Below are positions 25,622-48,000 of a stretch of DNA of 64,000 bases, one piece after another. The DNA lies in assembly GCA_964371255.1 (NCBI GenBank), contig CAYJKV010000002.1:130553-194552 (forward strand), read 5' to 3'. The notes under the pieces are model-generated. The model did not search any database. It was not told where the DNA came from and worked only from the letters and a program-made list of their open reading frames with translations. Made by a program: the position numbers and the translations under genes. Source of the DNA: an uncultured Candidatus Saccharibacteria bacterium (GTDB taxonomy: Bacteria; Patescibacteriota; Andersenbacteria; UBA10190). Each line of letters opens with the position of its first letter. Positions within the stretch are counted from its first letter, which is position 1.

Positions 25622-26578
25622 TTACACTCTTTGCTTTACCCCGGCCACCTTCTGCACGTTAGCCACATACCACTCATGTGTCTCTTCCAACCCCCGTTGC
25701 AAAGTATATTCATGCTGATAACCCAGCTCCCTTAGTCTCGATACATCCAATCGGCGCAGGGGCATCCCATCAGGCTTAGTGCTGTCGAGAACAATATCTC
25801 CTGTATATCCCACCACCGTCTTGATTATCTTCACCAAATCCAAAATATTAATGTCTTCTCCTGTTCCGACATTAATAATTTCCGGACTGTCATACTTTTC
25901 CATCAGTAATAACAAAGCCCGCGCTAAATCATCCACAAACATAAATTCGCGCCTCGGTTTGCCTGAACCCCAAACTTTTACAAACGGCTGATTCGTGTCT
26001 CTCGCCACCACCAGCTTGTGTAATAACGCCGGCAAAACATGGGCGTAATTATTGTTAAAAGTATCACCGGGACCATATAAATTGGTCGGCATAGCTGAAA
26101 TAAAGTTATCCCCGTACTGGCGATGATAAGCTTGGCAAAGCTTGATCGCGGCAATTTTTGCAATGGCATATGCTTCGTTCGTTGGCTCCAGCTTGCCTGT
26201 CATAAAATACTCTTCTTTTATCGGCTGCTGGCTTTCTTTGGGATAAATGCAGGCGCTGCCTAAGTTCAATAACTTTTCTACTTTATATTCATGAGCGGCA
26301 TGGATAATATTCGTCGCGATTTGCAAATTTTGGTACAAGAAATCAACCGGGTGCGTATCATTATCCAGTATTCCGCCTACTCTGGCCGCAGCGATAATTA
26401 CAAATCGCGGCTTCTGCTGCGCAAACCACTCGTCCACCTCTGTTCTATCCGTTAAATCAAGTTTTTCCCTTGTTTGATACAGCAGATTAGTATATCCCTT
26501 CTGTCTCAGCAATCTAACAACCGCTGATCCCACTAGTCCGGTATGTCCCGCTATATATATTTTATCATCTGCTTTCAT
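25622..26578 (-). CDS. fcl: GDP-L-fucose synthase (GDP-4-keto-6-deoxy-D-mannose 3,5-epimerase/4-reductase)
   Basis: Near full-length collinearity with the Fcl/GMER family: IYIAGHTGLVGSA, LGSACIYPK, YAIAKIAAIKLCQAY, VGTGEDI. Confidence 0.8.
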   Translation of the reverse strand: MKADDKIYIAGHTGLVGSAVVRLLRQKGYTNLLYQTREKLDLTDRTEVDEWFAQQKPRFVIIAAARVGGILDNDTHPVDFLYQNLQIATNIIHAAHEYKVEKLLNLGSACIYPKESQQPIKEEYFMTGKLEPTNEAYAIAKIAAIKLCQAYHRQYGDNFISAMPTNLYGPGDTFNNNYAHVLPALLHKLVVARDTNQPFVKVWGSGKPRREFMFVDDLARALLLLMEKYDSPEIINVGTGEDINILDLVKIIKTVVGYTGDIVLDSTKPDGMPLRRLDVSRLRELGYQHEYTLQRGLEETHEWYVANVQKVAGVKQRV

Positions 26579-28866: not shown

Positions 28867-30096
28867 TCATACGACTGCCATTCTTTTCCAGTCAATCTTC
28901 AGTGTCATTAACGCAATCATTGTCCATATCAGAGGCACTAACGCAAACACAATTGCAAATCCCATAATTTGCCAGACACTGCCTAAGATCACAATAAACA
29001 ACATCTTCAGCGCTGGACTCAACAGCTCGTTCACCATTACCGCTTTTCGCTTACTCTGCAGAAAAGAAAAGTTCACCAGCAGCTGTGAGAGCGGCAAAAA
29101 CAATAACCCTGTCGAAGCCACCATCGCCATCGGCAAGGCTGATCTGTATTGCTCGCCAAACAATGGAATTAGTAAAAACCACACCATACAAGCCGTCACC
29201 GCCGTAGCGATCACCCCGATCATTAATGCAGTTAATAAATCACGCCATCCCAAAAAGTCCCGATGGCTTAATTTTGGCAGAGCCATAGTGAAGATGCTTT
29301 TAAAACTCAGCATTACCGCGTTAGGCATAATTACCGCCACTGCGTATATTGCTAAAACCGACGGGGAGAAAACAATTCCAGCCAGTACTTTATCTACGTT
29401 CCCTGCAATCTGCTTGAAGAATCCGGCTTTCGACAAGAAATAGCTATACTCTTTCCAGTCTGAGCTCACCTCATCGTTTCGCAGCACCGCAAAACTTTTT
29501 ACAAATGTTATGCCGTTTACGAATATATTTGTGCCTATATAAACTAACAATAACACTGCTACATTATCTCCGACGATCAATAACACTATGATCGTCACTA
29601 ATGCGGTTAATACTGATCTGGCCATGCTCGATATCGCATAATCAGTGAACAGCTCTTTACCTTTGTACATGAACTGCCAGCTCTGTACTACCAAATACCA
29701 TGGCACCAACAGCGCAACTGCTAAAAAAGCCCAGGCTAATGGAAATTCATTTCTGTAATAATAATACCAGGCGAATAGCGCCATGACTGGCACACCCAGC
29801 AGACTCCAATAAAAACGGGTTTTTACCGCCCGCGGATAAACACCGTCCCTATTCCTGGCTGCATCTCTCAAGATGACCGTATCAAAACCTCTGATAGAAA
29901 TTACTGCTACCATCGCCAAGACCGATAAAGCCAGTTGGAACTCGCCCAATGTCTCTTTAGCTGACAGGCGGGCAATCATTAGAGTTACCGCCACACCGGA
30001 GACTTGTTGTATCCCATCGCTCAATAAAAGCACGGGACCTCGTTTAATTACTTGTAATATGTCTAGACCAATTCGGGTGCTAATATTTTTGACCAT
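28867..30096 (-). CDS. Wzx-type oligosaccharide flippase (MOP/polysaccharide-biosynthesis family)
   Basis: 409 aa with about 12 TM segments. N-terminal GLDILQVIKRG...SDGIQQVSGVAVTLMIARL is typical of the Polysacc_synt family. Confidence 0.6.
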   Translation of the reverse strand: MVKNISTRIGLDILQVIKRGPVLLLSDGIQQVSGVAVTLMIARLSAKETLGEFQLALSVLAMVAVISIRGFDTVILRDAARNRDGVYPRAVKTRFYWSLLGVPVMALFAWYYYYRNEFPLAWAFLAVALLVPWYLVVQSWQFMYKGKELFTDYAISSMARSVLTALVTIIVLLIVGDNVAVLLLVYIGTNIFVNGITFVKSFAVLRNDEVSSDWKEYSYFLSKAGFFKQIAGNVDKVLAGIVFSPSVLAIYAVAVIMPNAVMLSFKSIFTMALPKLSHRDFLGWRDLLTALMIGVIATAVTACMVWFLLIPLFGEQYRSALPMAMVASTGLLFLPLSQLLVNFSFLQSKRKAVMVNELLSPALKMLFIVILGSVWQIMGFAIVFALVPLIWTMIALMTLKIDWKRMAVV

Positions 30097-30166: not shown

Positions 30167-31285
30167 CTAGCGCTTCTTCCTGTTTTTATTATTTGGCTTA
30201 ATTTCTTCTACTCCTAATTTCTCCAGTGCATCAAGCCATAACCCTATTCCTTTACCCACCTGACTAACGTCCCAATCATGTTTGGCTCGCCCCATCGGCC
30301 ATGACGGAAAATTCATTGCCTGCCTTAGCTCATGGCCAACTTGCGCCAAGGCTTCCATTAAGCCATTGGCTTTTAAGTCCATCGTCCACAATACATCAAC
30401 TAACTTATCAACCGTTGCCATGCCATGAATTTCTAACAGGAAATCATGGAAATTATCATGCGGATTTCTTTTTTGTCTTACCACCGGCGCTCCATACGAG
30501 ACCCCAAAATTAAAATGGTCAGCTATGCGTTTAGTGATGAGGGAAGAAAATATATCGTCATACCTGCCCACATATGGACATAAAAATGCTGTCAACCCAA
30601 AACCATTTAGATACGATGTATTTTGCGTATCACAAGGGCAGATAACATTTTCTGCCAAAATAATCGATCGCTCCCTGCGTACCAAATAAGTTCCTCGCAG
30701 CCCGATCAATCTGTCTATCGCATCAACATCCGGATTCTCTTCCCATAAACCCTGATTAATCGCGATATCCTTCGTCCCTTTCGTCATCTTTACCCTTGCG
30801 GCATCATTATCGTCGCGATGGAATGGTGAAAATCCCCTGAAGAAGACTTTCTCGCGATAAAATTTCTTTATTGCATTATACCAAACTGGCTCGCTCGCTT
30901 TCAGCACTTCTCCCTTAGCCGCCCTGATGCTGTGGTGGCCGATGAAATCCTCTTGCTTCAGCAAGTTATCATCATCAATTGTAATTATCACGTCATCCTT
31001 CGTATATTGTTTTGTCAGACAGTACAAATAACCCAAGTTTCTCCGACCAATCGAATTAAACGGAATATATTCGTATATCGGCAAATGGCTGAACATTTTT
31101 TTCTGATCGTTGATATTCAGGTAAACCGTGTGCGGCAAACCTGCGCAATATTGTTTTGTCCCACTAGGTGATTTCTTGTCTCCGACTACGACAACTTCAA
31201 ATTCCCGCCCATATTTCTCAAAGTCTTTGATATATCTTTTCAGAGCCTTCGGAATATTGATCGTCGTTGTCACTAAATAATTCAT
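30167..31285 (-). CDS. RGP/GT75-like protein (reversibly glycosylated polypeptide / UDP-arabinopyranose mutase family homolog)
   Basis: VTTTINIPKALKRY...EVVVVGDKKSP, ITIDDDNLL (DDD) and INQGLWEENPDVDAIDRL parallel the RGP family blocks IVIPTIR...IIVQDGDPSK, DDDC and GLWLNIPDYDA. Confidence 0.4.
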   Translation of the reverse strand: MNYLVTTTINIPKALKRYIKDFEKYGREFEVVVVGDKKSPSGTKQYCAGLPHTVYLNINDQKKMFSHLPIYEYIPFNSIGRRNLGYLYCLTKQYTKDDVIITIDDDNLLKQEDFIGHHSIRAAKGEVLKASEPVWYNAIKKFYREKVFFRGFSPFHRDDNDAARVKMTKGTKDIAINQGLWEENPDVDAIDRLIGLRGTYLVRRERSIILAENVICPCDTQNTSYLNGFGLTAFLCPYVGRYDDIFSSLITKRIADHFNFGVSYGAPVVRQKRNPHDNFHDFLLEIHGMATVDKLVDVLWTMDLKANGLMEALAQVGHELRQAMNFPSWPMGRAKHDWDVSQVGKGIGLWLDALEKLGVEEIKPNNKNRKKR

Positions 31286-31394: not shown

Positions 31395-32339
31395 TTACTT
31401 CCCCCTTGCTAACTCTTCTATTAGTTTTTCTGTTATAAACTCCTCAACCCTTCTCATTTCATCATAGGTCGCACCGCCGATATGGGGCGTGATTATTACG
31501 TTACCATGGTTTCTTGCGTATCTGATGATTTGATTATTTTGAATTTGCCCGCTTATCTCATCAGTGATCACGTCCAGCCCCGCTCCACCAATTCTTTTGC
31601 GTCGCAGCGCCACGATTAAATCCCGCTCCCGCACCACCGCTCCCCGGCTCGTATTTATGAGAATCTGCCCGCTCTTTGCCCGATTAAAATAGTCTTGCCC
31701 GATTAAGCCAGTAGTTTCTGTATTTAACGGCACGTGCACAGACACGATATCAGCTGCCTTTGCTAAGGTAGCCAGTGATCTTACTTTTGTATACCTGCCA
31801 TAATGCTTATGCGGATCATGATATATAACCTTTGCTCCCAGGGCCGTTACCAATCGGGCTGTTATTGTACCTAACCGTCCCATTCCGATAATCCCCACAG
31901 TCCTGCCTTTCATTGATCGACCAACCCATCGCTCCCTCTCCCACTTGCCAACTAAAACTTCTTGGCTTGCCGGTATAATGTTGCGTATTAGGTTTAGCAT
32001 TAGGCCCACGGCTAGCTCAGCGGTCGGGGTTATTGTCTTAAGAAAATTATTCTCGCCTTGTAGGGATATCACTTTAATACCGCGTAACTTTGCCGTTTTT
32101 ACATCTATATGATCAATTCCCGTCGTAGGCGTGGCGATAAATTTTGTACGTTTCGTTGCGTTAATAATTCTCTTATCAACCTTGATTCCTAATCTCACGA
32201 TAATTCCATCATACTGGTTGATGCTCTTTTGTAACTTTTGATGATCACACCGGCCCTTCACCACTTGCCAACCGGCTCGTTTCATCCGTTTAATGGCCTT
32301 GGCGCTGAAATCTTTGCTTTCTGTTATCAGCACCTTCAT
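31395..32339 (-). CDS. D-isomer-specific 2-hydroxyacid dehydrogenase (NAD-binding)
   Basis: GRTVGIIGMGRLGTITARL Rossmann motif. 314 aa. 4-nt overlap with neuA. Confidence 0.7.
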   Translation of the reverse strand: MKVLITESKDFSAKAIKRMKRAGWQVVKGRCDHQKLQKSINQYDGIIVRLGIKVDKRIINATKRTKFIATPTTGIDHIDVKTAKLRGIKVISLQGENNFLKTITPTAELAVGLMLNLIRNIIPASQEVLVGKWERERWVGRSMKGRTVGIIGMGRLGTITARLVTALGAKVIYHDPHKHYGRYTKVRSLATLAKAADIVSVHVPLNTETTGLIGQDYFNRAKSGQILINTSRGAVVRERDLIVALRRKRIGGAGLDVITDEISGQIQNNQIIRYARNHGNVIITPHIGGATYDEMRRVEEFITEKLIEELARGK

Positions 32340-33082
32340 TGTTTTGTCGCCATTTTATAATCTGAATTTTTTAAATAATATTCCGCCAATCTTAAATCCT
32401 CCAAGGTGTCAATATTGACTGATCTGTTTACCGGCATTAAATAGGGACGACAATCCTCGGACACAAACTTCTCTTGCTCGAGCAGATAGGACGTTTTCAC
32501 TAAGTAAATTGCTCCGTTTCTCCATACTGCTTCCGGAAACCGCTGTCTTGGCATCCCCGCTGGCGTTGGTATTACTTGAGTAACCCGTGTTTTATTTTTC
32601 AAGTAATACATGTACCAGGGATGATAAGCCACCATTCGTGTGAAACTGCAAACGCTATTGACTCGGTATTTTTCCATGATGGCTAAAGCCGCGTCTATGT
32701 CCTCAGCCCTTCTCAGCGGAGCGGTTGGCTGTAACAGCAACACGTATCTATATTTTTTATCGGTTCTTTTTAATATGTCTTTTATCACCTCAATGATATT
32801 TGTTCTGTCTTGAGCAAGTTCATGCGGTCTCAAGTACGGCACGTGACCGCCATAAGCCTCGGCTACTTTCCGTATTTTTTTGTCATCAGTTGAGACAACA
32901 TAATCAAATCTGTGTTTTGTTTTTTGGATAGCTTCCAGGGTATATGCAATCAGTGGTTTACCATGCAGCTCTACTATATTTTTATATTTTATACCCTTTG
33001 ATCCGCCGCGTGCCGGCACTATGCCTAATACTGGTCCCAAAGTGTCTCGTGATTTTCTGGTCGCCATATCCTTGGTTGTCAC
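32336..33082 (-). CDS. neuA: CMP-nonulosonic acid synthetase (acylneuraminate cytidylyltransferase family)
   Basis: LGIVPARGGSKGIKYKNIVELHGKPLIAYTL; CTP_transf_3 fold. 248 aa. Confidence 0.75.
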   Translation of the reverse strand: MTTKDMATRKSRDTLGPVLGIVPARGGSKGIKYKNIVELHGKPLIAYTLEAIQKTKHRFDYVVSTDDKKIRKVAEAYGGHVPYLRPHELAQDRTNIIEVIKDILKRTDKKYRYVLLLQPTAPLRRAEDIDAALAIMEKYRVNSVCSFTRMVAYHPWYMYYLKNKTRVTQVIPTPAGMPRQRFPEAVWRNGAIYLVKTSYLLEQEKFVSEDCRPYLMPVNRSVNIDTLEDLRLAEYYLKNSDYKMATKQ

Positions 33083-33091
33083 ATTGTTGCC

Positions 33092-34225
33092 TTAACTCTG
33101 CTTATAAAATACTTCTTGCAGGCTAACCCTGCGTTGATCATCTGTCGTTAAAGGCTCCCCCGCCTTTATATCACGAACCGCTTTTTTCCCTACCACCAAC
33201 GGATAATTTTCTGATCCTATTCCTTTAATTAACGCTTGCGGCCGCATGGCCCAGAGATCGCTCGCTTTTATCACTTCGCCTTTTTTAATATCGCGGCTCG
33301 CCACCAAGCTTTTTCTAAATAATCCTCTAAATCCTGAGTGACTGTCCGCTAGCTCTTCTGACACTTGGCCAATTATTGCTGGATTATCTGCCACCATATT
33401 AACGCCTTGCCGTACTGTTCTCGTCATTGCTGTAAACTCATTAGGCGTCATTGATACTTTATGGTCAGCGCCCCACCAGCGACGATTTAACGAGAAATGC
33501 TTTTCAATTATGGTTGCGCCTTGTTTAACCGCCTGAATTACTCCCTGGTACCCCAATGAATGATCGGAGAATCCAATCGGAATTTGATATCTGGCCTTAT
33601 ACCACCCAATCGTGGCAACATTTAAATCTTCCACTGGACAAGGATATTTCGACACGCAATGCAATAAAGCCAGGTGCTTATTTTTTGTCTTTATATATTT
33701 TATTGCGGCCTCCACTTCCGCCCGGCTGCTCATCCCTGTCGAGATAATGATTGGCTGGCGCAAAGTCCGCAAATAATCCAATAAAACAAAGTCCAAAATA
33801 TCACCGGACCCTACTTTCCATAACGGCACGCCAATCTTATTTAACATCTTAGCCGCTCCTCGGCTCATTGGCGTTGAAAAAAATAATATTCGTTGCTCCG
33901 TACAATACTTCTTAATGGCTTTCCACCACTCCTCGTTGCCCAGCAAACTATTCCGCTTGACCCACGCGTATCTATCTGCCCCTTTGAAATGGGGTGATAC
34001 AACTTTAATCTGCCACTGTTCATCGCCCACCTGATGCGTCTGGAATTTTACCGCGTCCGCCCCTGCTGCTCTGGCCTGACTGATCAATTGTTTGGCATTG
34101 TACAAGTAATGTCCGCGGGACTGCTCCTTTTTTGTCCGGATGAAATTTTTACCGATTTCAGCAATAAAAAAAACATTTTTAGACCCAATCTTGCTCCAAA
34201 TATTTACATTTTTATTGCTCTTCAT
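33092..34225 (-). CDS. neuB: Nonulosonic acid synthase (N-acetylneuraminate synthase family)
   Basis: NeuB TIM-barrel motifs (IGFSDHSLG, AVKQGATIIEKHFSL) plus a C-terminal SAF/antifreeze-like domain (ASRDIKKGEVIKASDLWAMRP). Confidence 0.8.
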   Translation of the reverse strand: MKSNKNVNIWSKIGSKNVFFIAEIGKNFIRTKKEQSRGHYLYNAKQLISQARAAGADAVKFQTHQVGDEQWQIKVVSPHFKGADRYAWVKRNSLLGNEEWWKAIKKYCTEQRILFFSTPMSRGAAKMLNKIGVPLWKVGSGDILDFVLLDYLRTLRQPIIISTGMSSRAEVEAAIKYIKTKNKHLALLHCVSKYPCPVEDLNVATIGWYKARYQIPIGFSDHSLGYQGVIQAVKQGATIIEKHFSLNRRWWGADHKVSMTPNEFTAMTRTVRQGVNMVADNPAIIGQVSEELADSHSGFRGLFRKSLVASRDIKKGEVIKASDLWAMRPQALIKGIGSENYPLVVGKKAVRDIKAGEPLTTDDQRRVSLQEVFYKQS

Positions 34226-34242
34226 AAATCAGGACGGGTCTC

Positions 34243-35400
34243 TCAATACGTAATCATTTTTTGCTGTTTTATCTCTACTTTCTTTAGGATCGCCATGATT
34301 TTTTTGGCAGTTTCTCCGTTGCCGTATAAAAATGATCTCTCATACTTACCGTGCCTCACCTGTTTTCTTATCGCTTGTACAATTTTCCTTTCATCAAATA
34401 ACACGTTCATCACATTTTTTCCCATTAAACGGCCATGTTGTCTGGTACCGACATTAACGGCCGGCACACCCAACCAGCCGCTTTCTTTTATGCCGACTGA
34501 CGAATTGCCGATCACTGCCTGAGCTTGGTTTAGAACATTCGCGAAATGCTCCGGTTTCAAATATCGAATAAATCTGATTTGATAGGCATCATCATGTTCA
34601 ATCTGCCATTCCCTGATCCGTTTGGCGATCGCGTCAGACCCCGCACCTAAATTCGGCCAAATCCATACGGCTTGCATTTTTAAACTATGTATCGCCGTCA
34701 ACAAACATTCGGCCTGTTGCCTCGCCAGATTAGCCTCCGTCGTGACTGGATTCAGCATCACCACTGCGTAAGGCTGTCCCAGATCTAATTTTGCCCCCGT
34801 CCCGTGCTTGTTAATCGTGGCATCAGGCACATGCTTCAGAAACTTAATTTGTCGGAGAAAATCCACATCTAGGCTGCCCACATTCCATATTCGATCCTTT
34901 CTCTCTCCCAGTCTAATTAATCTGGTTTTTGCCTGTTCATTGGTGACAAAATGCCCATGGGCTAGTTTTGTAATAGCGTGCCGGACACTCTCGTCAATTG
35001 ATCCACTGACATCCCCGCCTTCTAAATGAATTAAAGTTTTATTCAAATAAGCCGCCGCCGCGGCTATGGGCAGCACTTCAAACCGATCACCCCTTACAAT
35101 CACTACGTCTGATTCTAAGTTCTCCATCCCAGTCGCAAACTCCAGCATGCCCAGGGCGGCTGTTTTAGCCATTCCGAGGTGCTCGCCTCCTTCAATCGCT
35201 GTTGGTATTTTAAGATCAGGTTCAAACCCATGCGCCCTCAACTCGGCCACGACATTGCCATAACGATATGTCAACGCGCCGCCCCCCACAATTATCTGCA
35301 GCCTAAACCTCGACGATCGTTTGATCTCTTTTAATAAAGTCACAAGTCTACTAAGATGAGCCTTGTCAGTGATCACTACACAGATGTTTCTTTTATGCAT
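34243..35400 (-). CDS. neuC: UDP-N-acetylglucosamine 2-epimerase (hydrolysing), NeuC/LegG family
   Basis: VIVRGDRFEVLPIAAAAAYLNKTLIHLEGGDVSGSIDESVRHAITKLAHGHF. The ATG at 35400 is preferred over the TTG at 35403. Confidence 0.75.
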   Translation of the reverse strand: MHKRNICVVITDKAHLSRLVTLLKEIKRSSRFRLQIIVGGGALTYRYGNVVAELRAHGFEPDLKIPTAIEGGEHLGMAKTAALGMLEFATGMENLESDVVIVRGDRFEVLPIAAAAAYLNKTLIHLEGGDVSGSIDESVRHAITKLAHGHFVTNEQAKTRLIRLGERKDRIWNVGSLDVDFLRQIKFLKHVPDATINKHGTGAKLDLGQPYAVVMLNPVTTEANLARQQAECLLTAIHSLKMQAVWIWPNLGAGSDAIAKRIREWQIEHDDAYQIRFIRYLKPEHFANVLNQAQAVIGNSSVGIKESGWLGVPAVNVGTRQHGRLMGKNVMNVLFDERKIVQAIRKQVRHGKYERSFLYGNGETAKKIMAILKKVEIKQQKMITY

Positions 35401-35409
35401 CAATTTAAT

Positions 35410-36948
35410 ATGGCGACAAATTCCAAACCAATCAACCTAATCTTCTGCGCCCAAGGATCCGCCCTTAAGATCTTTGATAATTTGCTGCCGCCGCTTCGTC
35501 GGTCGCTATCCCTAGGCCACGTTGGTCTTTATGTGGCCGATCAAGTTTTCTATGACCATTATTTGTCCCGCGCTAATAATTTCTCTGCCCATCCTATTCA
35601 GTGGCTCAAGGAATGGGAACTAAATCAAAGCGCCCGCCGCACACCGCTCAACCTGGAGCAGTTAACTGCCTGGGAAAAACTTTACGGCCAGCCAAATTTC
35701 TGGCCCGCGCTCATCGCCGATCGCCGCCTCTTCATGGGCCCATTAATCAAATACAAACAAGATTATCGCCCGCGCCTGTCTTACACCGCGATGCTGCGTC
35801 GGTTGCAAGTTTCCATTGAGCAGATCGAACGACATATCGGCCGTGTCAAACCCGATGCCATCATCGGTTTTAATATGGTCACCCTCGACGAATTTATATT
35901 CTACTTAATTGCCAGGCAAAAACGTATACCGTATTGGCAAATTAAAAATGCCAAGGTTAATAATCTTATTACACTTTTCCCGGACCCGCTGCGGCTGTCC
36001 GACTTTTTCTCTCAACTTGCTGCCACTGCCCCATCTCCTGCTGTCTTGAACCAGGCACGCGATTACCTGCGACGCGCCCAAGCTAAGAACAGCACTTATG
36101 AAGGACATATTATCCTTAAACCACCCACTCTCTCTTCCCTCATCACTCCAGCTCTATTGTATAAACTAACCAAATCAAGCGCTTTTTCTCTGCTCAAAAC
36201 CTTTCGCTATCCGGCTGACAACCAATCGGCTGGCCTGTCCGCTGTCTGGCAATTCAACGTGGTCAAACCGATCAACGCGCTCAATCATCATCGATATTTA
36301 TCCCATCGTTATTTACCGCCCAGTCAGCTGTCCAGTACCCCCTACGTATTTTTTCCTCTTCATACCGAGCCAGAAATAGCCTTATCTATCTACGGCCGCT
36401 ATCACCAAAATCAGATAGAAGTTATCAGAAATGTCGCGCAAAGCCTGCCGGTCACTTGGTCGGTAGTGGTTAAGGACCACCCGCGCTCCCTGGGGTTCCG
36501 TAAACTGCAATACTACAAAAAACTGCTGCAAATACCCAATGTTAAACTGGTTAATCCATACCTACCATCATGGGATATTATTGAGTACGCCCAGGCCGTC
36601 GTCACTATCTCCAGCTGGGTTGGCTTTGAAGCTGTTGTTTCTAAAAAACCAGTCGTGACGATGGGTGAATGCACTTATAATTGCCTGCCTGACTGCATGG
36701 TGACAAAAAATACGTCTTATCAGCAATTGTCGTCCGACATTGATCATGCCATCCGCCATTACAGCTATGACGAAAAAGCTTTATTAGATCATATCGCCCA
36801 AGTCATTAGTCAATCTTTTCCTATTAATATGTATAGTGACGTGCTCGCCAAGCCTAACCGCCATTCCTCGCCCGCTGCCACTTCTTCGTCTCAACTATGG
36901 TCTGACTTTGCTAACTACCTCATAACCGCCGCGCACCTTCACGAATGA
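35410..36948 (+). CDS. Capsule_synth-family (KpsS/KpsC-like, GT107-type) glycosyltransferase
   Basis: FFPLHTEPEIALSIYGRYHQNQIEVIRNVAQSLPVTWSVVVKDHP...SSWVGFEAVVSKKPVVTMG fits the KpsS/KpsC family core. Start is at 35395 or 35410, divergent from neuC. Confidence 0.55.
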   Translation: MATNSKPINLIFCAQGSALKIFDNLLPPLRRSLSLGHVGLYVADQVFYDHYLSRANNFSAHPIQWLKEWELNQSARRTPLNLEQLTAWEKLYGQPNFWPALIADRRLFMGPLIKYKQDYRPRLSYTAMLRRLQVSIEQIERHIGRVKPDAIIGFNMVTLDEFIFYLIARQKRIPYWQIKNAKVNNLITLFPDPLRLSDFFSQLAATAPSPAVLNQARDYLRRAQAKNSTYEGHIILKPPTLSSLITPALLYKLTKSSAFSLLKTFRYPADNQSAGLSAVWQFNVVKPINALNHHRYLSHRYLPPSQLSSTPYVFFPLHTEPEIALSIYGRYHQNQIEVIRNVAQSLPVTWSVVVKDHPRSLGFRKLQYYKKLLQIPNVKLVNPYLPSWDIIEYAQAVVTISSWVGFEAVVSKKPVVTMGECTYNCLPDCMVTKNTSYQQLSSDIDHAIRHYSYDEKALLDHIAQVISQSFPINMYSDVLAKPNRHSSPAATSSSQLWSDFANYLITAAHLHE

Positions 36949-37955
36949 TCATTTTCCTCCCTCAAAAGATTAAATCCACCGGGGGATCCTCCACTTTTGC
37001 GCTTAAATTGCAGCGCGGACTGCGCCTTCAAGGGCATCAGGTCGTGTTCCAATTTATCTCACATTTTGATTTTCTTTTAGTCAACGCTGTCTGTCCCTTG
37101 CGCTACTTACTGTGGGCTAAACTAACCCATCGTTCGATCATCCAGCGCCTTGACGGTGTTTACTACCCTATGTCCGTGGCCCATTATCGATATTGGTTTT
37201 ATAATTTGCCGCTGCAGATCATTCTTCACTTCTTTGCTGACGCCGTCATATACCAAAGCCAATATTCGAAGGATTGTTGTGATAAATTTTTAGGCGCAAA
37301 CCGTTATATTCCTCATTACCTGATCTATAACGGAGTGGACACCGCTCTTTTTTCACCGCATGGTCAATCTAAGTCATTACGCGACTTCCCTGGCCAGCCC
37401 TTACTGATTACCGCTTCTCGTTTTCGTCGCGCTGATCAAATTCTTCCCCTATTGGCAGCTTTTACTCTCTATAAAAAACAATGGCAGCCAGCCGCCAAGC
37501 TGATCGTTATTGGCGACATCTCTCGTCATTTGACGAAATTACTCCGGCGTGACCGAATGGATCCTGCCATCCACATGTTGGGCCCCATCGCCAATGACGA
37601 ATTGCCCAATTTTCTGCGTGCCTCTGATATTTTCTTGTTTACTCACCTCAACCCTCCTTGCCCTAACAATATTATCGAAGCTATGGCCTGCGGTTTGCCG
37701 ATCTGTGGGGTCTCTGATGGTGCCATGGTAGAATTGACCTCACCGGGCTTAAACAGCGAGCTTATTGCCGCGCCCGATACCGGTTTTTATCATCCCCGCC
37801 AGCTTGATCTTCAAGCCTTCTCTGCTAATCTTAATAAAATCATGACCCATCAGAAAAGCTATGCCTCTCATAGCCGGCGGCTCGCCTCGCTCCGGTTTTC
37901 CTTGCCGGATATGATTGCCAACTATCTCACCATCTTCAATAATTTAACCGGCTGA
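36945..37955 (+). CDS. Glycosyltransferase, GT-B/GT4-like
   Basis: ITASRFRRADQILPLL...FLFTHLNPPCPNNIIEAMACGLPICGVSDGAMVEL. Confidence 0.6.
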   Translation: MIIFLPQKIKSTGGSSTFALKLQRGLRLQGHQVVFQFISHFDFLLVNAVCPLRYLLWAKLTHRSIIQRLDGVYYPMSVAHYRYWFYNLPLQIILHFFADAVIYQSQYSKDCCDKFLGANRYIPHYLIYNGVDTALFSPHGQSKSLRDFPGQPLLITASRFRRADQILPLLAAFTLYKKQWQPAAKLIVIGDISRHLTKLLRRDRMDPAIHMLGPIANDELPNFLRASDIFLFTHLNPPCPNNIIEAMACGLPICGVSDGAMVELTSPGLNSELIAAPDTGFYHPRQLDLQAFSANLNKIMTHQKSYASHSRRLASLRFSLPDMIANYLTIFNNLTG

Positions 37956-37971: not shown

Positions 37972-38712
37972 ATGTCTAATATCTTTTCCAATAATTTTCT
38001 GGTCAACCGCCCTATCGAGTTGGCGATGCAAGCATATGCCAGCCTATTTTCACCCGACCAGCAAGTCCTAGATCTTGGTTGCGGTTTCATGCCATATAAA
38101 AAGTATTTCTCGTGCCGCTATGTCGGTGCCGATCCTTTAACTACTGTCCGGCCCGATGTCATCTGCAGTGCCTGGCGGGTACCTTATCCGGATCAATCGT
38201 TTGATGGCCTGATCCTTAACCAATCCCTCGAGCACATACGTTACCCAGCCGCTACAGTCAAGGAAGTGTATCGTTTACTCAAACCGGGTGGCCGGCTGAT
38301 CGTTACTACTCCCCAAACAATGAAAAACCATAGCGTGGCCATTGCTGCGGCCGACGCACCTTTGCATAACTTTGATCATGACTCGCTGCCCTATTGGCAA
38401 AACGATTTTTGGCGCTTCACAAAATACGGTCTCATCGCCCTCTTCCATCAGTTTACCATCCTTGAGGTTCGAGAAACTTCCGGTTATATTGGCTCAATTT
38501 TTCAGCTTTTTAACTATTTTGTCGCATCGGCTACGAAGCGGCACCGTCTGCTCGCGCCGGTCTACTTCGTCAATAATCTGGCTGGCCTGACTTGTGATCT
38601 GCTTGCCCGTTCCTTGATCTCTCTAGACCTGCCGGTCACCCGTAAATTCAATCACTATATTTATTCTTCACTCACCATTAATTTAATAATGCTGGCTCAA
38701 AAACCACGATAA
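37972..38712 (+). CDS. Class-I SAM-dependent methyltransferase
   Basis: VLDLGCGFMPY...LILNQSLEHI...LKPGGRLIVTTP. Confidence 0.65.
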   Translation: MSNIFSNNFLVNRPIELAMQAYASLFSPDQQVLDLGCGFMPYKKYFSCRYVGADPLTTVRPDVICSAWRVPYPDQSFDGLILNQSLEHIRYPAATVKEVYRLLKPGGRLIVTTPQTMKNHSVAIAAADAPLHNFDHDSLPYWQNDFWRFTKYGLIALFHQFTILEVRETSGYIGSIFQLFNYFVASATKRHRLLAPVYFVNNLAGLTCDLLARSLISLDLPVTRKFNHYIYSSLTINLIMLAQKPR

Positions 38713-38716
38713 TTAT

Positions 38717-39481
38717 ATGTCCTCATTACCACGCTCTGTTGCGTTCACATTACTTGATTCATTACGACGCTCTTTCCTTCGCCCATTTATCCTTCGGATT
38801 TTTTGCCGTTTACACAATTCTTCCTATCACTGGTTCTCTTTTTTTGCCGCCGGTATCGGCCCACACCCCAAACATGCCATTACTAATTATCATCAGTTTT
38901 TTATTAACAACATTACAGCCACCGATTGCGTGATTGATTTAGGTTGCGGCCATGGTGAGCTTGCCTATGATCTGGCCCGTCACGGCCGGCTGGTCACCGG
39001 CATCGACTCTAATATTTCCTCTATTGCAGAGGCTCAGCAGCATTACCAGCGTCCCAATCTCAGCTTCATTGTTGGCGATATCGCCGCCCTTCGAGCAATG
39101 GAACATTACGACGTCGCGATACTTTCTAATGTCTTAGAGCATATCGAACATCGGGTGGAGTTATTAGAGGCCATTCAACATTTTGCTGATAAAATCCTTA
39201 TTCGCGTTCCCCTGCTTACCCGCGATTGGATTACTGCCTATAAACAGCAACATGGTCTCGAGTATCGTCTGGATGACACACATTTTATTGAGTATTCCGC
39301 CGATTCGTTCCGTTCAGAGACAACAGCCGCCGGACTAAATATTTCTGCTTGGCACGCTGCCTTTGGCGAACTTTATGCCGTCTGCCAACCGCTTACGCCA
39401 TCTCGATCGGTTAATCGCGTATCTAACCAGCCCCCTCCGCCGGTGCCGCTCGCCATCAATCACCAACCGTTGCCAGGCTAA
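38717..39481 (+). CDS. Class-I SAM-dependent methyltransferase
   Basis: VIDLGCGHGELAYDLARHGRLVTGIDSN...VAILSNVLEHIEH. Confidence 0.65.
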   Translation: MSSLPRSVAFTLLDSLRRSFLRPFILRIFCRLHNSSYHWFSFFAAGIGPHPKHAITNYHQFFINNITATDCVIDLGCGHGELAYDLARHGRLVTGIDSNISSIAEAQQHYQRPNLSFIVGDIAALRAMEHYDVAILSNVLEHIEHRVELLEAIQHFADKILIRVPLLTRDWITAYKQQHGLEYRLDDTHFIEYSADSFRSETTAAGLNISAWHAAFGELYAVCQPLTPSRSVNRVSNQPPPPVPLAINHQPLPG

Positions 39482-39490
39482 TCCATCCCG

Positions 39491-40474
39491 ATGCGTCTAA
39501 ACGCAAAAATCTTCGTTGCGGGACATACCGGGCTGGTCGGCTCAGCCCTCATTCGCGCGCTGGATAAACAGGGCTATCGCAATCTCATCCTGAAAACGAA
39601 GGCCCAGCTCGATTTAACCGATTCATTATCTACCACCTCATTTCTTTTGCAGGAAAAACCTGATTTTGTCTTCGTCTGTGCGGCCCGTGTCGGTGGCATT
39701 ATGGAAAACAAAACTTATCCGGCCCAATTCATTTATGATAATTTACGCATTGCCACTAACATCATCCACGGCTCCTATCAAGCCAAAGTCGCAAAGCTGC
39801 TCTATCTGGGAAGCTCTTGCATTTACCCTCGCCAAAGTCCGCAGCCGATGCATGAACAATATTTTATGACTGGACCGCTGGAGCCAACCAATGAATCCTA
39901 TGCCATTTCAAAAATTGCCGGCATTAAAATGTGCCAAGCCTATAATCAGCAGTACGGCACTAATTTTATCTGCGTGATGCCGACCAATATTTATGGTCCG
40001 CATGATAATTTTAATCTGGCCAGCTCGCATGTTTTGCCCGCTTTACTACGTAAATTCATTGAAGCCACTATTAATAATTACCCCACTGTCACCGTTTGGG
40101 GCACTGGACAGGCGCGCCGCGAATTCATTTTTGTTGATGACATAGCTGAAGCGCTCATCTTTATGATGAAAAATTATAATAGCAACGAAATCATTAATAT
40201 TGGCACCGGCGAAGATATTAGCATTGCCAATTTAGCGCACTTGATTAAGTCTATTGTCGGTTACTCCGGTCAAATTATTTTTGACTCCTCCAAGCCCAAC
40301 GGGATGCCCAGAAAACGCCTAGACGTCTCGCGTCTCCACCAACTCGGCTTCACTCATCGAGTTAGTTTATCGGACGGTATTAAAATAACTCATGACTGGT
40401 ACTTAACCCAATTACCGTCCGGCCTGCCCGCCATCTCCCAAAGACGAACCCATGTCCGATCAGCCTCAGCTTAA
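39491..40474 (+). CDS. GDP-L-fucose synthase family (Fcl/GMER) paralog; a ColC-type GDP-colitose synthase is possible
   Basis: Near full-length collinearity with Fcl: KIFVAGHTGLVGSA, YLGSSCIYPR, YAISKIAGIKMCQAY, MPTNIYGPHDNF, IGTGEDIS. Confidence 0.75.
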   Translation: MRLNAKIFVAGHTGLVGSALIRALDKQGYRNLILKTKAQLDLTDSLSTTSFLLQEKPDFVFVCAARVGGIMENKTYPAQFIYDNLRIATNIIHGSYQAKVAKLLYLGSSCIYPRQSPQPMHEQYFMTGPLEPTNESYAISKIAGIKMCQAYNQQYGTNFICVMPTNIYGPHDNFNLASSHVLPALLRKFIEATINNYPTVTVWGTGQARREFIFVDDIAEALIFMMKNYNSNEIINIGTGEDISIANLAHLIKSIVGYSGQIIFDSSKPNGMPRKRLDVSRLHQLGFTHRVSLSDGIKITHDWYLTQLPSGLPAISQRRTHVRSASA

Positions 40475-45898: not shown

Positions 45899-46735
45899 TT
45901 ACTGCTTGGTTTCCTTTAATCGACCAATGAAATACACCGCTTCGTGATCATCCCATGATGTTCTGCCGACTCTGCCTTTTTTCTTAACGACATTTCGGTA
46001 CAATGAATTCCAGTTTTTCTCCAAGAATTCATCTATCACAGATCTATCTACCTTCAGAGGATGACCAGCGTCGTATCGGTCTTTTAGGTTCTCCGATAAA
46101 TCAGCTCCATGGTAGTACTTATCTGCCATTACCAAAACCGCTCCCGGGGCAGCCATACTTAAAATCTTTTGCCAAACCACCTCCACGTTCTGGCAATGTT
46201 CCAACACATTGATTAACAATATGAGATCAAACTTCACTTTTGTATCAAAGTCCTCAATGGCGCTGTCGATGATCTGCACTTTTTTGTGCCAAGGCCAATA
46301 AACTGGCGTCTGCATAACTTGTTCTCTCACCCACATCCGCCCGTCCTTATACCGGCAAAAACGATGTTTTAAATATTGTTTGATCAACGGATCCAGCAAC
46401 CATATATTATCTATTTTGGCCGCCTGCGCCACGTACCTGATGTTCGTAAAAGGGCCGCATCCTAATTCAATGCCTTTTTCAAATGTCAGGCCGCGCAAAG
46501 CCTGGTAATTATTAAACGCTATTTTATGCCAGGTGTTGTTATCTTCTCGTGTCCATCGACCATCCACCAGCCAGGTTTTTTGTTCAAACTCCTGCGCTTT
46601 CAACCATCTCTCCTTGTCAACTCTCAAAACGCCCCTTTTTTCTTGCAGCCATCTTAGATCATTATTTTGCGCCAGTCTTTTCCTGGCTTCCTCTCCTTGC
46701 CATACTTTACGATCACTCTCGACATACAAACTCAT
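45899..46735 (-). CDS. Class-I SAM-dependent methyltransferase
   Basis: GIELGCGPFTN...DLILLINVLEHC...GAVLVMAD. Confidence 0.55.
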   Translation of the reverse strand: MSLYVESDRKVWQGEEARKRLAQNNDLRWLQEKRGVLRVDKERWLKAQEFEQKTWLVDGRWTREDNNTWHKIAFNNYQALRGLTFEKGIELGCGPFTNIRYVAQAAKIDNIWLLDPLIKQYLKHRFCRYKDGRMWVREQVMQTPVYWPWHKKVQIIDSAIEDFDTKVKFDLILLINVLEHCQNVEVVWQKILSMAAPGAVLVMADKYYHGADLSENLKDRYDAGHPLKVDRSVIDEFLEKNWNSLYRNVVKKKGRVGRTSWDDHEAVYFIGRLKETKQ

Positions 46736-48000
46736 AAAATTTTCTTGTTACCAAATAAATGTTTTTTTATTAACCAATAAACTGCTCCGGAATACAAAGC
46801 CCCTAATAATATATAATATATTATAGATCCAGCCACTGCGCCGCTAATGCCCCACCTGGGGATTAGCACAACATACGCTATCACATTTGCCCCTCCGGCT
46901 ATCATACCAATTGACGTGAATAGAATTTCTCGTCTCTCTTTTATTAGAATGTACCCCCAAATCGACGCCAGCCAATGAAAAGGGATCACCAATAAATACC
47001 ATTGGGCGTATCCGCTTGATTCCCGGTATTCCATACCAAAGAGATTGACAATCAACAGGGGCGTCAGCACCCACAATGCTGCCAGACTGCTCAGCATCAC
47101 GCCGGCGATTTTAAAACCTTGTGCTTTGTACCAGCGGACAATCTCGCTCGTGCCAGTTTTGTATATTTTGGGTATATATGCAGACATCATCCCGCCTAAT
47201 ACCAGTTTTACTCCCTCGCCTATTTTAGTCGCGATTGCATAAATAGCTAACGCCTCTAATCCCAACCAGCCGACTAATACCAGACGATCAACCCGCGAGT
47301 ACAATACATTAAATAATTCGGAAATAAATAATTTATAACCTGACTTCATCCACCCCTCTTCTATTAAATTGTTAACTATCAGCCGGCGCACTTTTTTAAA
47401 AAATATTATATTGAACCCGGCCTGCCCCACAATCATGACGGCAAACGGGACCACGATACTGCTTCTATTCAACCACACCGCTCCACCAACTGCGGCTAAT
47501 ATCACTATTGATGAAATGGCGTAGTAGCGTGACCGTTCGGCAAATCTTTCCTTTGCCTGCAGCACGACATCCCAGCGCCTCAAAACTGTATACCAGGGAA
47601 ATATTGGCGCCGTTATTAATAACCCAAGCCCAATGTGTGCATTACTGTATACTAAACACCACCAGCCCATAGCGGCTAACACCGCGGCTCCCATGATGCT
47701 CCAACGCCAACTAAGCCTTAACACCTCACGCAGCGTCCCATCGTACCCAGTTGATAAGGATCTCAGCAGCGAACTATTAAAGCCGGTAATGGCCAGCACA
47801 GCTGCCAGGTTGTAAATCGAGAACAGCAATTCATACTCACCTACGAGTTTTAGGCTCGTTAATCTTGTTAACAAAACGATGATGCCCAAATCCGCTATCA
47901 TCCTCCATACCTTCTCCAGGTTCAACCAAAAACTGCTCTTTATCAGATAGCTTGAGTCCACGCCAAACCACCCTTGCATTCGTTGGCTAATATTCCCCAT
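46732..48000 (-). CDS. Wzx/MOP-family polysaccharide-biosynthesis flippase (second copy)
   Basis: 422 aa with about 12 TM segments. 4-nt overlap with the methyltransferase gene. Confidence 0.55.
   Translation of the reverse strand: MGNISQRMQGWFGVDSSYLIKSSFWLNLEKVWRMIADLGIIVLLTRLTSLKLVGEYELLFSIYNLAAVLAITGFNSSLLRSLSTGYDGTLREVLRLSWRWSIMGAAVLAAMGWWCLVYSNAHIGLGLLITAPIFPWYTVLRRWDVVLQAKERFAERSRYYAISSIVILAAVGGAVWLNRSSIVVPFAVMIVGQAGFNIIFFKKVRRLIVNNLIEEGWMKSGYKLFISELFNVLYSRVDRLVLVGWLGLEALAIYAIATKIGEGVKLVLGGMMSAYIPKIYKTGTSEIVRWYKAQGFKIAGVMLSSLAALWVLTPLLIVNLFGMEYRESSGYAQWYLLVIPFHWLASIWGYILIKERREILFTSIGMIAGGANVIAYVVLIPRWGISGAVAGSIIYYILLGALYSGAVYWLIKKHLFGNKKIL

Follow-up and report, generated by a model that had tools for sequence, protein, structure and literature searches.

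Capsule_synth proteins beside nonulosonate modules

The association of PF05159 (Capsule_synth) proteins with nonulosonate (NulO) modules was described by Kenyon et al. in 2015 (PMC4487303), and a role as NulO transferases was ascribed in 2014–2015 to KpsS1, KpsS2 and Gtr59, whose genes adjoin modules for Pse, Aci, Leg and 8eLeg (PMC4487303). The Gtr59 family (Acinetobacter baumannii K12/K63, Orf10 of E. coli O108, Photobacterium profundum) consists of predicted Aci, Leg and 8eLeg transferases, which are predicted to be retaining, e.g., forming the beta-Leg-(2->6) linkage in K63 (PMC4487303). Accessions are AIT56356 and AHB32584 for Gtr59, AJR19455 for Orf10 of E. coli O108 and EAS44604 for P. 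profundum. Biochemical work on KpsS1 of A. baumannii, the founding member of GT118, has established that it transfers Pse5Ac7Ac with retention of configuration (Walklett 2024, as cited in PMC12887879). Members of the BFO_1060 family of Tannerella are genetically proven transferases of Pse/Leg derivatives (PMC5420450). KpsS and KpsC (GT107) are retaining beta-Kdo transferases, in which the Gln of a QxxxD motif binds the Kdo carboxylate and the Asp is the nucleophile.

Here, a gene in a 64-kb window (the whole stretch of DNA analyzed, 64,000 nucleotides) is compared with these systems. A preliminary description had labeled its product a KpsS/KpsC-family protein which may use the CMP-nonulosonate made next door, and had pointed out that such a donor specificity would be new for this fold. 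The specificity as such is not new, since the association was described in 2015 and NulO transfer, predicted in 2014–15 (PMC4487303), was shown for KpsS1 in 2024, as far as this work is cited in PMC12887879. New here is, judging from the alignments below, an uncharacterized sister family whose genes accompany NeuC-type (Neu/Leg-configured) modules and whose members lack the Glu proposed to be catalytic in KpsS1.

The target gene and its start

35410..36948, + strand: target, predicted CMP-nonulosonate-dependent glycosyltransferase (GT), 512 aa; cytoplasmic GT-B protein of the Capsule_synth superfamily

The target ORF ends at 36948 on the + strand and has candidate starts at 35356 (530 aa), 35395 (517 aa) and 35410 (512 aa). 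The 512-aa start is favored by sequence comparison, because the closest relative, a Candidatus Andersenbacteria locus (L007), has GTT in place of the ATG at 35395 and keeps ATGGCGACAAAT at 35410, and because the N-termini of family members lie 1–2 residues ahead of the first strand. Since identical copies of the protein occur on 18 metagenome contigs and an Andersenbacteria genome carries a homolog of 71% identity with the surrounding gene order preserved, the target is a real, conserved gene.

The Pfam profile Capsule_synth (PF05159) matches the target with 48.3 bits (cut-off 20, E-value 1.3e-12) in one stretch only, amino acids 306–425 against profile positions 141–268. The protein had been described as a single-domain Capsule_synth protein of 512–517 aa, and this match bears that out; by the profile, the target is a single catalytic module. 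The AlphaFold2 (AF2) model (pLDDT 91, pTM 0.90) has GT-B proteins as structural matches, among them KpsC and the bacterial polysialyltransferase 5wcn, and contains a large extra helical region of the target family at amino acids ~196–300. No membrane segments were predicted in the model.

A divergent neu operon

The genes on the other strand, read outward from the target, are as follows.

34243..35400, - strand: NeuC-type hydrolyzing UDP-HexNAc 2-epimerase (TIGR03568, 344.5 bits, cut-off 235.9; Pfam Epimerase_2, 214.8 bits)
33092..34225, - strand: NeuB-family nonulosonate synthase with SAF domain (Pfam NeuB, 234 bits, and SAF)
32336..33082, - strand: CMP-nonulosonate synthetase, NeuA/PseF-like cytidylyltransferase (Pfam CTP_transf_3, 80 bits)
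31395..32339, - strand: D-2-hydroxyacid (phosphoglycerate-type) dehydrogenase (Pfam 2-Hacid_dh_C, 168 bits)
30167..31285, - strand: putative RGP (GT75-like) glycosyltransferase of the same operon (Pfam RGP, 46.7 bits)

The NeuC start lies at 35400, and the TIGR03568 match begins at residue 5 of the protein. The start codons of NeuC and the target are 9 nt apart when the target begins at 35410, and the two starts overlap by 6 nt when it begins at 35395; the head-to-head arrangement with starts 0–10 nt apart, as previously stated, is therefore correct. A scan of the 9-nt divergent junction for sigma-70 promoters and terminators was uninformative (one match, 1.0 expected).

Both the NeuB-like protein (NCBIfam NeuB_NnaB 262 bits, PseI 224 bits) and the NeuA-like protein (PseF 147.8 bits; KdsB models at most 61 bits) score under the cut-offs of these NeuB_NnaB, PseI and PseF models. 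Being below all equivalog cut-offs, they do not assign the type of NulO. Leg is not favored as the product, because the sole aminotransferase of the island scores best with RfbH and not with LegC or PseC, and because no PglD-type acetyltransferase was found in the island. PseG and PseH were not detected by Pfam in window ORFs of at least 150 aa. The start of the dehydrogenase gene overlaps the NeuA stop by 4 nt; this enzyme accompanies the NulO module across many phyla and is present in 27 of the 48 loci of close family members surveyed below. Our literature search returned nothing on a neuB/neuC/2-hydroxyacid-dehydrogenase module or on nonulosonic acids in Patescibacteria. The RGP gene is kept in the Andersenbacteria locus and also adjoins some further family members (L012, L058).

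A Wzx-type glycan island

Beyond the operon and downstream of the target, the following genes are relevant.

28867..30096, - strand: multi-pass membrane protein, Wzx/MOP-flippase-like (similarity to a PF01943 protein)
36945..37955, + strand: GT4-type glycosyltransferase (Pfam Glyco_trans_1_4 and Glycos_transf_1)
37972-38712 and 38717-39481, + strand: two SAM-dependent methyltransferases (Pfam Methyltransf_11/23/25)
46732..48000, - strand: second Wzx-type flippase candidate (Pfam Polysacc_synt PF01943, 34.9 bits)

Pfam scans of every window ORF of at least 150 aa revealed more than 15 GTs. The organism is a member of the Patescibacteria (Andersenbacteria-like), and the window represents a glycan island of the Wzx type; the closest genome likewise belongs to the Patescibacteria, a lineage not known to possess LPS or Kdo. 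Lipid-linked, Wzx-dependent assembly rather than ABC export is indicated by the flippase candidate at 46732..48000, to which the membrane protein at 28867..30096 is 25% identical (E-value 4e-28).

The GT4 gene start and the target stop overlap by 4 nt, so both genes are probably co-translated. The same GT4 partner also follows the target homolog in R. etli, Ferribacterium, Ferrovibrio and Allorhizobium, and the complete four-gene module (target, GT, methyltransferase, methyltransferase) is conserved in identical order in four loci (L005, L006, L047, L078).

Relationship to KpsS1, KpsS and KpsC

In pairwise phmmer searches, KpsS1 scored 60 bits against the target, and KpsS and KpsC 23 bits each. 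A family HMM gave 104.5 bits for KpsS1 (HMM positions 133–460), compared to 39.7 for the N-terminal module of KpsC (KpsC-N), 30.6 for KpsS and 13.8 for the C-terminal KpsC module (KpsC-C). With hhalign, the target family aligned with the KpsS1 family over 435 columns (99.9%, E-value 6.5e-36), but over only 89 columns with E. coli KpsS and 77 with KpsC-N, confined to a CMP-binding segment of ~80 residues. Consequently, the label 'KpsS/KpsC-family' stands at the level of the Pfam superfamily (PF05159) and does not extend beyond it. The identity between target and KpsS1 is 16% over the profile alignment and 32% over a local alignment of 148 residues. A KpsS1-family HMM gave 119.8 bits for the target, whereas a member from a Klebsiella plasmid reached 380 and KpsS1 itself 717. 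By these scores, the target family appears to be a sister family of KpsS1/GT118 rather than a part of it. On plasmids of Klebsiella and Mariluticola, the genes of more distant relatives come directly after pseBCFGI modules.

Target and KpsS1 have full-length homology, an H-x-x-P-E loop and a K-D-H motif in common, and KpsS1 is likewise encoded in a Wzx-type cluster beside the module making its CMP-NulO donor. The target is ~30 residues longer, has HP where KpsS1 has HK, and neighbors NeuC-type genes (Neu/Leg configuration) and never PseG/PseH, whereas KpsS1 is encoded beside a Pse module (PseB/C/H/G/I/F). With GT107, the target shares the GT-B fold, the Pfam superfamily and, in the domain that binds CMP, the HP and GFEA segments; KpsC, however, has two modules and the target one. 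The T. forsythia NulO transferases BFO_1060 and Tanf_01245, encoded just downstream of the CMP-NulO locus, also have the HP motif, but the target is not a member of their family, since model NF046086 gave only a weak C-terminal match (21.4 bits, cut-off 200). The Gtr59 family, compared by description only, resembles the target in that its PF05159 proteins adjoin NulO modules, including NeuC-type ones (Leg, 8eLeg); it is known from Proteobacteria and Bacteroides only, whereas the target family spans more than 15 phyla.

Active-site motifs

In an alignment of 48 family members, P316, E320-P321-E322, K355 and H357 are invariant, and H318 and P358 are conserved in at least 90%. Altogether, 32 residues are invariant and 28 nearly so, and they cluster in the motifs HxEPE, KxHP, NQIE and GxE. 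E68, D104 and E231 are among the invariant residues of the N-terminal domain. The Q-x-x-x-D position of the Kdo transferases (QVESD or QVEDD in KpsC) is occupied by H318-T-E-P-E322 in the target; the complete loops read PLHTEPE in the target, PIHFHPE in KpsS1 and PGQVExD in KpsC. In an alignment of the KpsS1 family, H301, P302 and E303 are invariant, and at least 90% of the members keep H299. K355-x-H357-P358 of the target aligns to K-x-H-P of KpsC, and the HP motif as well as the S/T-x-GFEA segment align with the KpsC structures 6MGD and 8FUW. The alignment with KpsC/KpsS catalytic residues, suggested earlier as a check, hence turned out negative with respect to QxxxD, which is replaced by HxEPE, while the HP motif is present.

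Glu132 of KpsS1, located in a YE motif, is the proposed general base (PMC12887879). It is invariant in the KpsS1 family, but its counterpart in the target is F154, and at least 90% of the target family have Phe at this position.

Search for Kdo and ABC-export genes

The earlier statement that no genes for CMP-Kdo synthesis or ABC export are visible was confirmed within the 64-kb window by two approaches. Pfam detected no KdsB, KpsF, KpsM/T or KpsE/D among ORFs of at least 150 aa, and phmmer with KpsF/E/D/U/C/S/T/M of E. coli CFT073 against all window ORFs found no Kdo-synthesis or export gene; the only matches were NeuA to KpsU (30 bits, at family level only) and the target itself. In 82 homolog loci, KpsF/E/D/T/M were never convincing (weak generic ABC or CBS matches only), and a true KdsB was found in one. 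Unlike GT107 genes, the target shows no linkage to kpsFU, kpsMT or kpsED in the loci searched.

Synteny across the family

The family of ~520-aa proteins comprises ~260 clusters at 50% identity (E-value ≤ 1e-30). We surveyed one genome per species with 10-kb flanks, which yielded 48 well-flanked loci of close members. Of these, 46 have NeuB, 47 NeuC and 46 NeuA within 10 kb, mostly on the same strand; when 49 loci were analyzed by gene order, NeuA was the gene immediately upstream in 20. No homologs of PseG or PseH were found in 82 family loci. Among more distant members, many of them CPR, NulO genes are nearby in 10 of 26 loci and missing from 16. Proteobacterial loci contain an 11-TM protein, which is taken to be Wzy-like. 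The survey loci were retrieved by HTEPE and NQIE motif patterns, and motif conservation there exists by construction; motif invariance is, however, also seen in the independent protein alignment.

Proposed reaction and alternatives

The best explanation as a whole, to which we assign a probability of about 0.72, is that the target moves the CMP-nonulosonate made next door onto a sugar acceptor. The soluble enzyme with two Rossmann domains would take CMP-NulO from the divergent NeuC, NeuB and NeuA, its C-terminal domain binding CMP via the K-D-H357-P358 motif and the P316-L-H318-T-E320-P-E322 loop standing where the retaining beta-Kdo transferases have Q-x-x-x-D. The acceptor would most likely be a lipid-linked oligosaccharide assembled by the adjacent GT4 enzyme and other transferases; the neighboring methyltransferases may then methylate it, and a Wzx-type flippase may export it. 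The analogy with KpsS1, KpsC and Gtr59 suggests transfer with retention, which would give a beta-linked Neu/Leg-type residue. While we infer donor, acceptor and stereochemistry, the neighboring CMP-nonulosonate as donor, proposed instead of CMP-Kdo in the preliminary description, is well supported by synteny, the closer kinship to KpsS1, the replacement of QxxxD by HxEPE and the Patescibacteria host lineage. Synteny is, of course, an association and not the reaction. Several points count against this explanation: an equatorial C5 substituent, as in Neu and Leg, may make ulosonic acids poor donors for Kdo-like retaining GTs (PMC12887879), F154 stands in place of Glu132, the identity to KpsS1 is low (16%), NulO genes occur in just 10/26 distant loci, and the NeuB and NeuA scores leave the type of NulO unassigned.

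A processive polymerase, forming a NulO homopolymer or alternating polymer similar to polysialic or polylegionaminic acid, seems unlikely to us. The relative KpsC polymerizes Kdo (PMC12887879), and both the structural match to 5wcn and the extra helical region would suit such an activity, but the closest characterized or predicted relatives, KpsS1 and Gtr59, add a single side-branch residue (PMC4487303) and the target has one catalytic module only. Further, the gene is embedded among numerous GTs and a Wzx-like flippase, joined in the proteobacterial loci by the Wzy-like protein; such a setting is typical of heteropolymer repeat units.

Chance placement would not be expected to produce a linkage to NeuA/NeuB/NeuC that is seen in 46–47 of 48 loci across more than 15 phyla and is usually immediately adjacent and co-oriented. 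This makes it improbable that the target is a GT-B enzyme with another donor (NDP-sugar or CDP-glycerol, TagB-like) located merely beside NulO genes, even though the window is full of GTs and 16 of 26 distant members, often CPR, have no NulO genes nearby; homology to CMP-ulosonate-using enzymes only and the CMP-type HP motif also argue against it.

A true GT107 beta-Kdo transferase, making a poly-Kdo linker for an ABC-exported capsule with kds/kps genes elsewhere in the genome, is highly improbable: the Capsule_synth match and the segments aligned with 6MGD and 8FUW agree with it, but HxEPE in place of QxxxD, the short alignments with KpsS and KpsC, the lack of kds/kps genes in the window and the homolog loci (one KdsB excepted), the Wzx-type flippases and the host lineage do not. 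Equally hard to believe is a non-catalytic or regulatory paralog, such as the modulator of chain length that rhizobial RkpZ has been proposed to be; an influence on polymer size is reported for some PF05159 proteins, but the invariant and nearly invariant residues fall in the active-site motifs of the relatives, which is the pattern of an active enzyme.

Possible implications for nonulosonate transfer in environmental bacteria

Bacterial NulO transferases are few and poorly known compared to the widespread biosynthetic genes. Following the preferred reading of the target as a CMP-nonulosonate-dependent transferase, the HTEPE family may tentatively be regarded as the missing Neu/Leg-NulO transferase of environmental bacteria and CPR, i.e., a retaining enzyme with a relocated base which forms beta-linked sialic-acid-type residues, although we rate this generalization as doubtful at present. 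If true, it would contradict the suggested limit of Kdo-like retaining GTs on equatorial-C5 ulosonic acids, and the family would be tied to an undescribed variant of the NulO pathway with a 2-hydroxyacid dehydrogenase, with or without a DHDPS-family enzyme. The mechanism of the family is of interest with regard to both the stereochemistry of transfer (retaining or inverting) and the residue acting as base, and the family has culturable carriers, Peteryoungia aggregata DSM 1111, Ahrensia marina and Rhizobium etli Mim1. In environmental bacteria, cyanobacteria and CPR, the target family is, based on its genomic linkage, the prime candidate for the attachment of Neu/Leg-type sugars.

The target gene and its junction with neuC

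The target ORF ends at 36948 on the + strand and has three candidate start codons, at 35356, 35395 and 35410. The palindrome ATGCAT (35395-35400) offers a start codon to either strand. NeuC (MHKRNICVV...) begins here on the - strand, and since its TIGR03568 match runs from residue 5, this long form of NeuC is correct. In L007, the Candidatus Andersenbacteria locus and closest relative, the + strand has GTT instead of ATG at 35395 but retains ATGGCGACAAAT at 35410, and homologs of the target start 1-2 residues ahead of the first beta-strand. Taken together, these sequence comparisons indicate that the target most likely starts at 35410 and comprises 512 aa. With this start, the divergent start codons of target and neuC lie 9 nt apart, and, consequently, promoters and ribosome-binding sites would be located inside the coding sequence of the respective partner; a consensus scan of the junction revealed nothing informative. 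Pfam Capsule_synth matches the target in one stretch (aa 306-425, 48.3 bits at a cut-off of 20). The Capsule_synth ORF head-to-head with neuC, noticed in the preliminary description, was confirmed.

Genes around the target

35400 (start), - strand, divergent to the target: NeuC (TIGR03568)
after NeuC, - strand: NeuB-family synthase
after the NeuB-family synthase, - strand: CMP-nonulosonate synthetase (NeuA)
start overlapping the NeuA stop by 4 nt, - strand: D-2-hydroxyacid dehydrogenase
30167-31285, - strand: RGP-like glycosyltransferase (homolog of the plant 'reversibly glycosylated polypeptide', GT75-like)
after the RGP-like gene, - strand: Wzx-like membrane protein
directly 3' of the target, 4-nt overlap, + strand: GT4 enzyme
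after the GT4 enzyme, + strand: two methyltransferases
after the methyltransferases, + strand: GDP-fucose-synthase-like protein
after the latter, + strand: RfbH-like aminotransferase
downstream of the aminotransferase, + strand: further glycosyltransferases and epimerases

The 64-kb window as a whole is a glycan island: GT4 and GT2 enzymes are numerous, and PMT_2 and YfhO-type membrane proteins, TPR proteins and two Wzx-like flippases are encoded as well. Among window ORFs of at least 150 aa, no match to the KdsB, KpsF, ABC-transporter or KpsE/D families was found, and phmmer with the Kps proteins of E. coli CFT073 (L088) detected nothing beyond the family-level similarity of NeuA and KpsU. 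Within the 64-kb window, no genes for CMP-Kdo synthesis or ABC export are visible.

The host belongs to the Patescibacteria. Among genomes, Candidatus Andersenbacteria matches best, with 71% identity of the protein, 86% identity of the junction DNA and a conserved gene order. Two GDP-L-fucose-synthase-like paralogs (57% identity) are encoded on opposite strands (25622-26578, -; 39491-40474, +). The RGP homolog (30167-31285, -) is located in a CPR glycan operon; in the metagenome variant L001 (4980-5297), this gene is called only as a 105-aa remnant, which suggests strain-level inactivation. Furthermore, the window has an extreme strand compositional asymmetry, and amino-acid usage visibly shifts along with it. 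Across 1-64000, each 2-kb bin has a + strand GC skew near -0.2. The 28 + strand genes have a coding-strand skew of -0.20, the 21 - strand genes one of +0.23 (third position, -0.27 vs. +0.30), and usage is 3.0 vs. 6.6% for Lys, 2.3 vs. 5.5% for Glu and 6.0 vs. 3.3% for Pro.

Fold and relationship to KpsS1, KpsS and KpsC

A confident AlphaFold model of the target, based on 48 homologs (pLDDT 91, pTM 0.90), consists of two Rossmann-like domains and a helical insertion. Foldseek retrieved GT-B proteins in general, with the best target-normalised TM-scores (about 0.5) for the KpsC structures 6MGD and 6MGB. By sequence, PDB yielded matches only to the CMP-binding C-terminal part of KpsC (aa 310-422, E 3e-7). 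In this alignment, P-L-H-T-E-P-E takes the place of the Kdo-transferase loop P-G-Q-V-E-S-D. The alignment of the ~520-aa homologs (window family) shows no variation at P316, E320, P321, E322, K355 and H357; at H318 and P358, at least 90% of the sequences agree.

KpsS1 was obtained by tblastn of a plasmid collection, which hit two A. baumannii chromosomes filed as plasmids (NZ_CP077849.1, L087, and NZ_CP104448.1; 3.66 and 4.09 Mb), one of which supplied the locus. The match is part of a capsule locus containing psaA-F, wzx and kpsS, and the 480-aa protein carries Tyr131-Glu132, in exact agreement with the description of KpsS1.

Similarity of the target and its family to KpsS1, KpsS and KpsC

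phmmer, window protein: KpsS1, 60 bits; E. coli KpsS, 23 bits; E. coli KpsC, 23 bits
Window-family HMM: KpsS1, 104.5 bits (HMM positions 133-460); E. coli KpsS, 30.6 bits; KpsC-N, 39.7 bits; KpsC-C, 13.8 bits
hhalign, window-family profile: KpsS1 family, 99.9%, E 6.5e-36, 435 columns; KpsS, 89 columns; KpsC-N, 77 columns

The corresponding KpsS1 loop reads P-I-H-F-H-P-E, and H-x-x-P-E is common to both families. However, the KpsS1-family HMM gives 120 bits for the window protein vs. 380-717 bits for true members, which places the protein outside the KpsS1 family proper as judged by sequence. The window family also differs from KpsS1 in being associated exclusively with NeuC-type modules, including the 2-hydroxyacid dehydrogenase variant, in its presence in CPR, and in lacking Glu132: this proposed general base, invariant in the KpsS1 family, aligns to a conserved Phe.

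Genomic context of the window family

The family is large: at E <= 1e-30, clustering at 50% identity leaves 260 representatives. Its members were found in Proteobacteria, Desulfobacterota, Planctomycetota, Acidobacteriota, Nitrospirota, Omnitrophota, Chloroflexota, Cyanobacteria (Synechococcus, Prochlorococcus), Spirochaetota, several CPR phyla and an archaeon. At 82 loci, flanks of up to 10 kb were searched for counterparts of the window's own neighbours. NeuB, NeuC, NeuA and the 2-hydroxyacid dehydrogenase occurred at 46, 47, 46 and 27 of 48 loci of close members (at least 230 bits, at least 5 kb flank), and at 10, 7, 8 and 1 of 26 loci of more distant members (< 230 bits). In close-member loci, nonulosonic acid (NulO) genes and dehydrogenase are mostly co-stranded; according to gene-order analysis, NeuA directly precedes the family gene in 20 of 49. 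PseG and PseH homologs were absent from all 82 loci; the same loci contained one true KdsB, but no credible KpsF, KpsE, KpsD, KpsT or KpsM.

Two module types were distinguished. The LegG-like type 1 (R. etli, Ferribacterium) comprises NeuB, methyltransferase, reductase, NeuC, CBS-nucleotidyltransferase, dehydratase and NeuA. Type 2 comprises NeuB, NeuC, sometimes a methyltransferase, D-2-hydroxyacid dehydrogenase, a DHDPS-family protein and NeuA; it is present in the window (31395-35400, -) without the DHDPS gene and recurs at L009, L010, L016, L023-L026, L031-L033, L035, L045 and L051. A literature search found no paper on a module of neuB, neuC and hydroxyacid dehydrogenase, and type 2 is apparently undescribed. 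At eight loci (L008, L011, L015, L017, L041, L047, L049, L052), two different modules flank the family member, one with LegG-like NeuC, the other with window-like NeuC and dehydrogenase.

In R. etli, Ferribacterium and close analogues, the family gene is followed by a glycosyltransferase and two methyltransferases, as in the window; multi-TM proteins further downstream (9 and 11 predicted helices) were interpreted as Wzx- and Wzy-like. Two more distant relatives, both on plasmids, lie directly 3' of pseBCFGI modules: one of the KpsS1 family in Klebsiella and one nearer the window family in Mariluticola (motif PLHLQPE). As a general rule, enzymes of the H-x-x-P-E branch are encoded beside the module making their nonulosonate donor. 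The Klebsiella pneumoniae locus (L089; 34-kb plasmid NZ_CP055164.1, 12820-26613) is flanked on both sides by identical copies of IS110. It combines pseBCFGI and the KpsS1-family transferase with a GT2, glf and an initiating phosphotransferase and represents a mobile pseudaminic-acid glycan cassette.

Predicted reaction and novelty

We conclude that the target is a predicted CMP-nonulosonate-dependent glycosyltransferase. Its donor would be the product of NeuC, NeuB and NeuA; the acceptor would be an oligosaccharide of a Wzx-dependent pathway, cytoplasmic and probably lipid-linked. Given the NeuC-type hydrolysing 2-epimerase and the absence of PseG and PseH, the sugar should be of Neu/Leg (D-glycero-D-galacto-type) configuration. 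The window's NulO genes are not adjoined by a dedicated dehydratase, LegC-type aminotransferase or acetyltransferase set, and the island's aminotransferase scores highest to RfbH, which argues for Neu5Ac or a Neu5Ac derivative. By analogy with KpsC, KpsS1 and the predicted Gtr59, we infer a retaining reaction via an acidic residue of the HxEPE loop; the NulO residue would then be beta-linked. Beta-Leg has been reported in the A. baumannii K63 capsule (PMC4487303).

The preliminary description had proposed use of the neighbouring CMP-nonulosonate as a new donor specificity for this fold. While the donor is supported, its novelty is not: in the work of Kenyon and colleagues, the PF05159 proteins KpsS1, KpsS2 and Gtr59 were named as transferases of Pse, Aci and Leg, and the location of such genes beside NulO modules was expressly pointed out for Acinetobacter, E. 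coli O108 and O165, Photobacterium, Bacteroides and Sphingobium (PMC4487303). Later work, cited in PMC12887879, characterised KpsS1 as a retaining Pse5Ac7Ac transferase and the founding member of GT118. As far as the literature searched shows, the ~520-aa sister family is undescribed, Gtr59 being compared by its description only. It has been suggested that Kdo-like retaining glycosyltransferases may not readily accept equatorial-C5 ulosonic acids (PMC12887879), and the window family represents a natural test of this suggestion.
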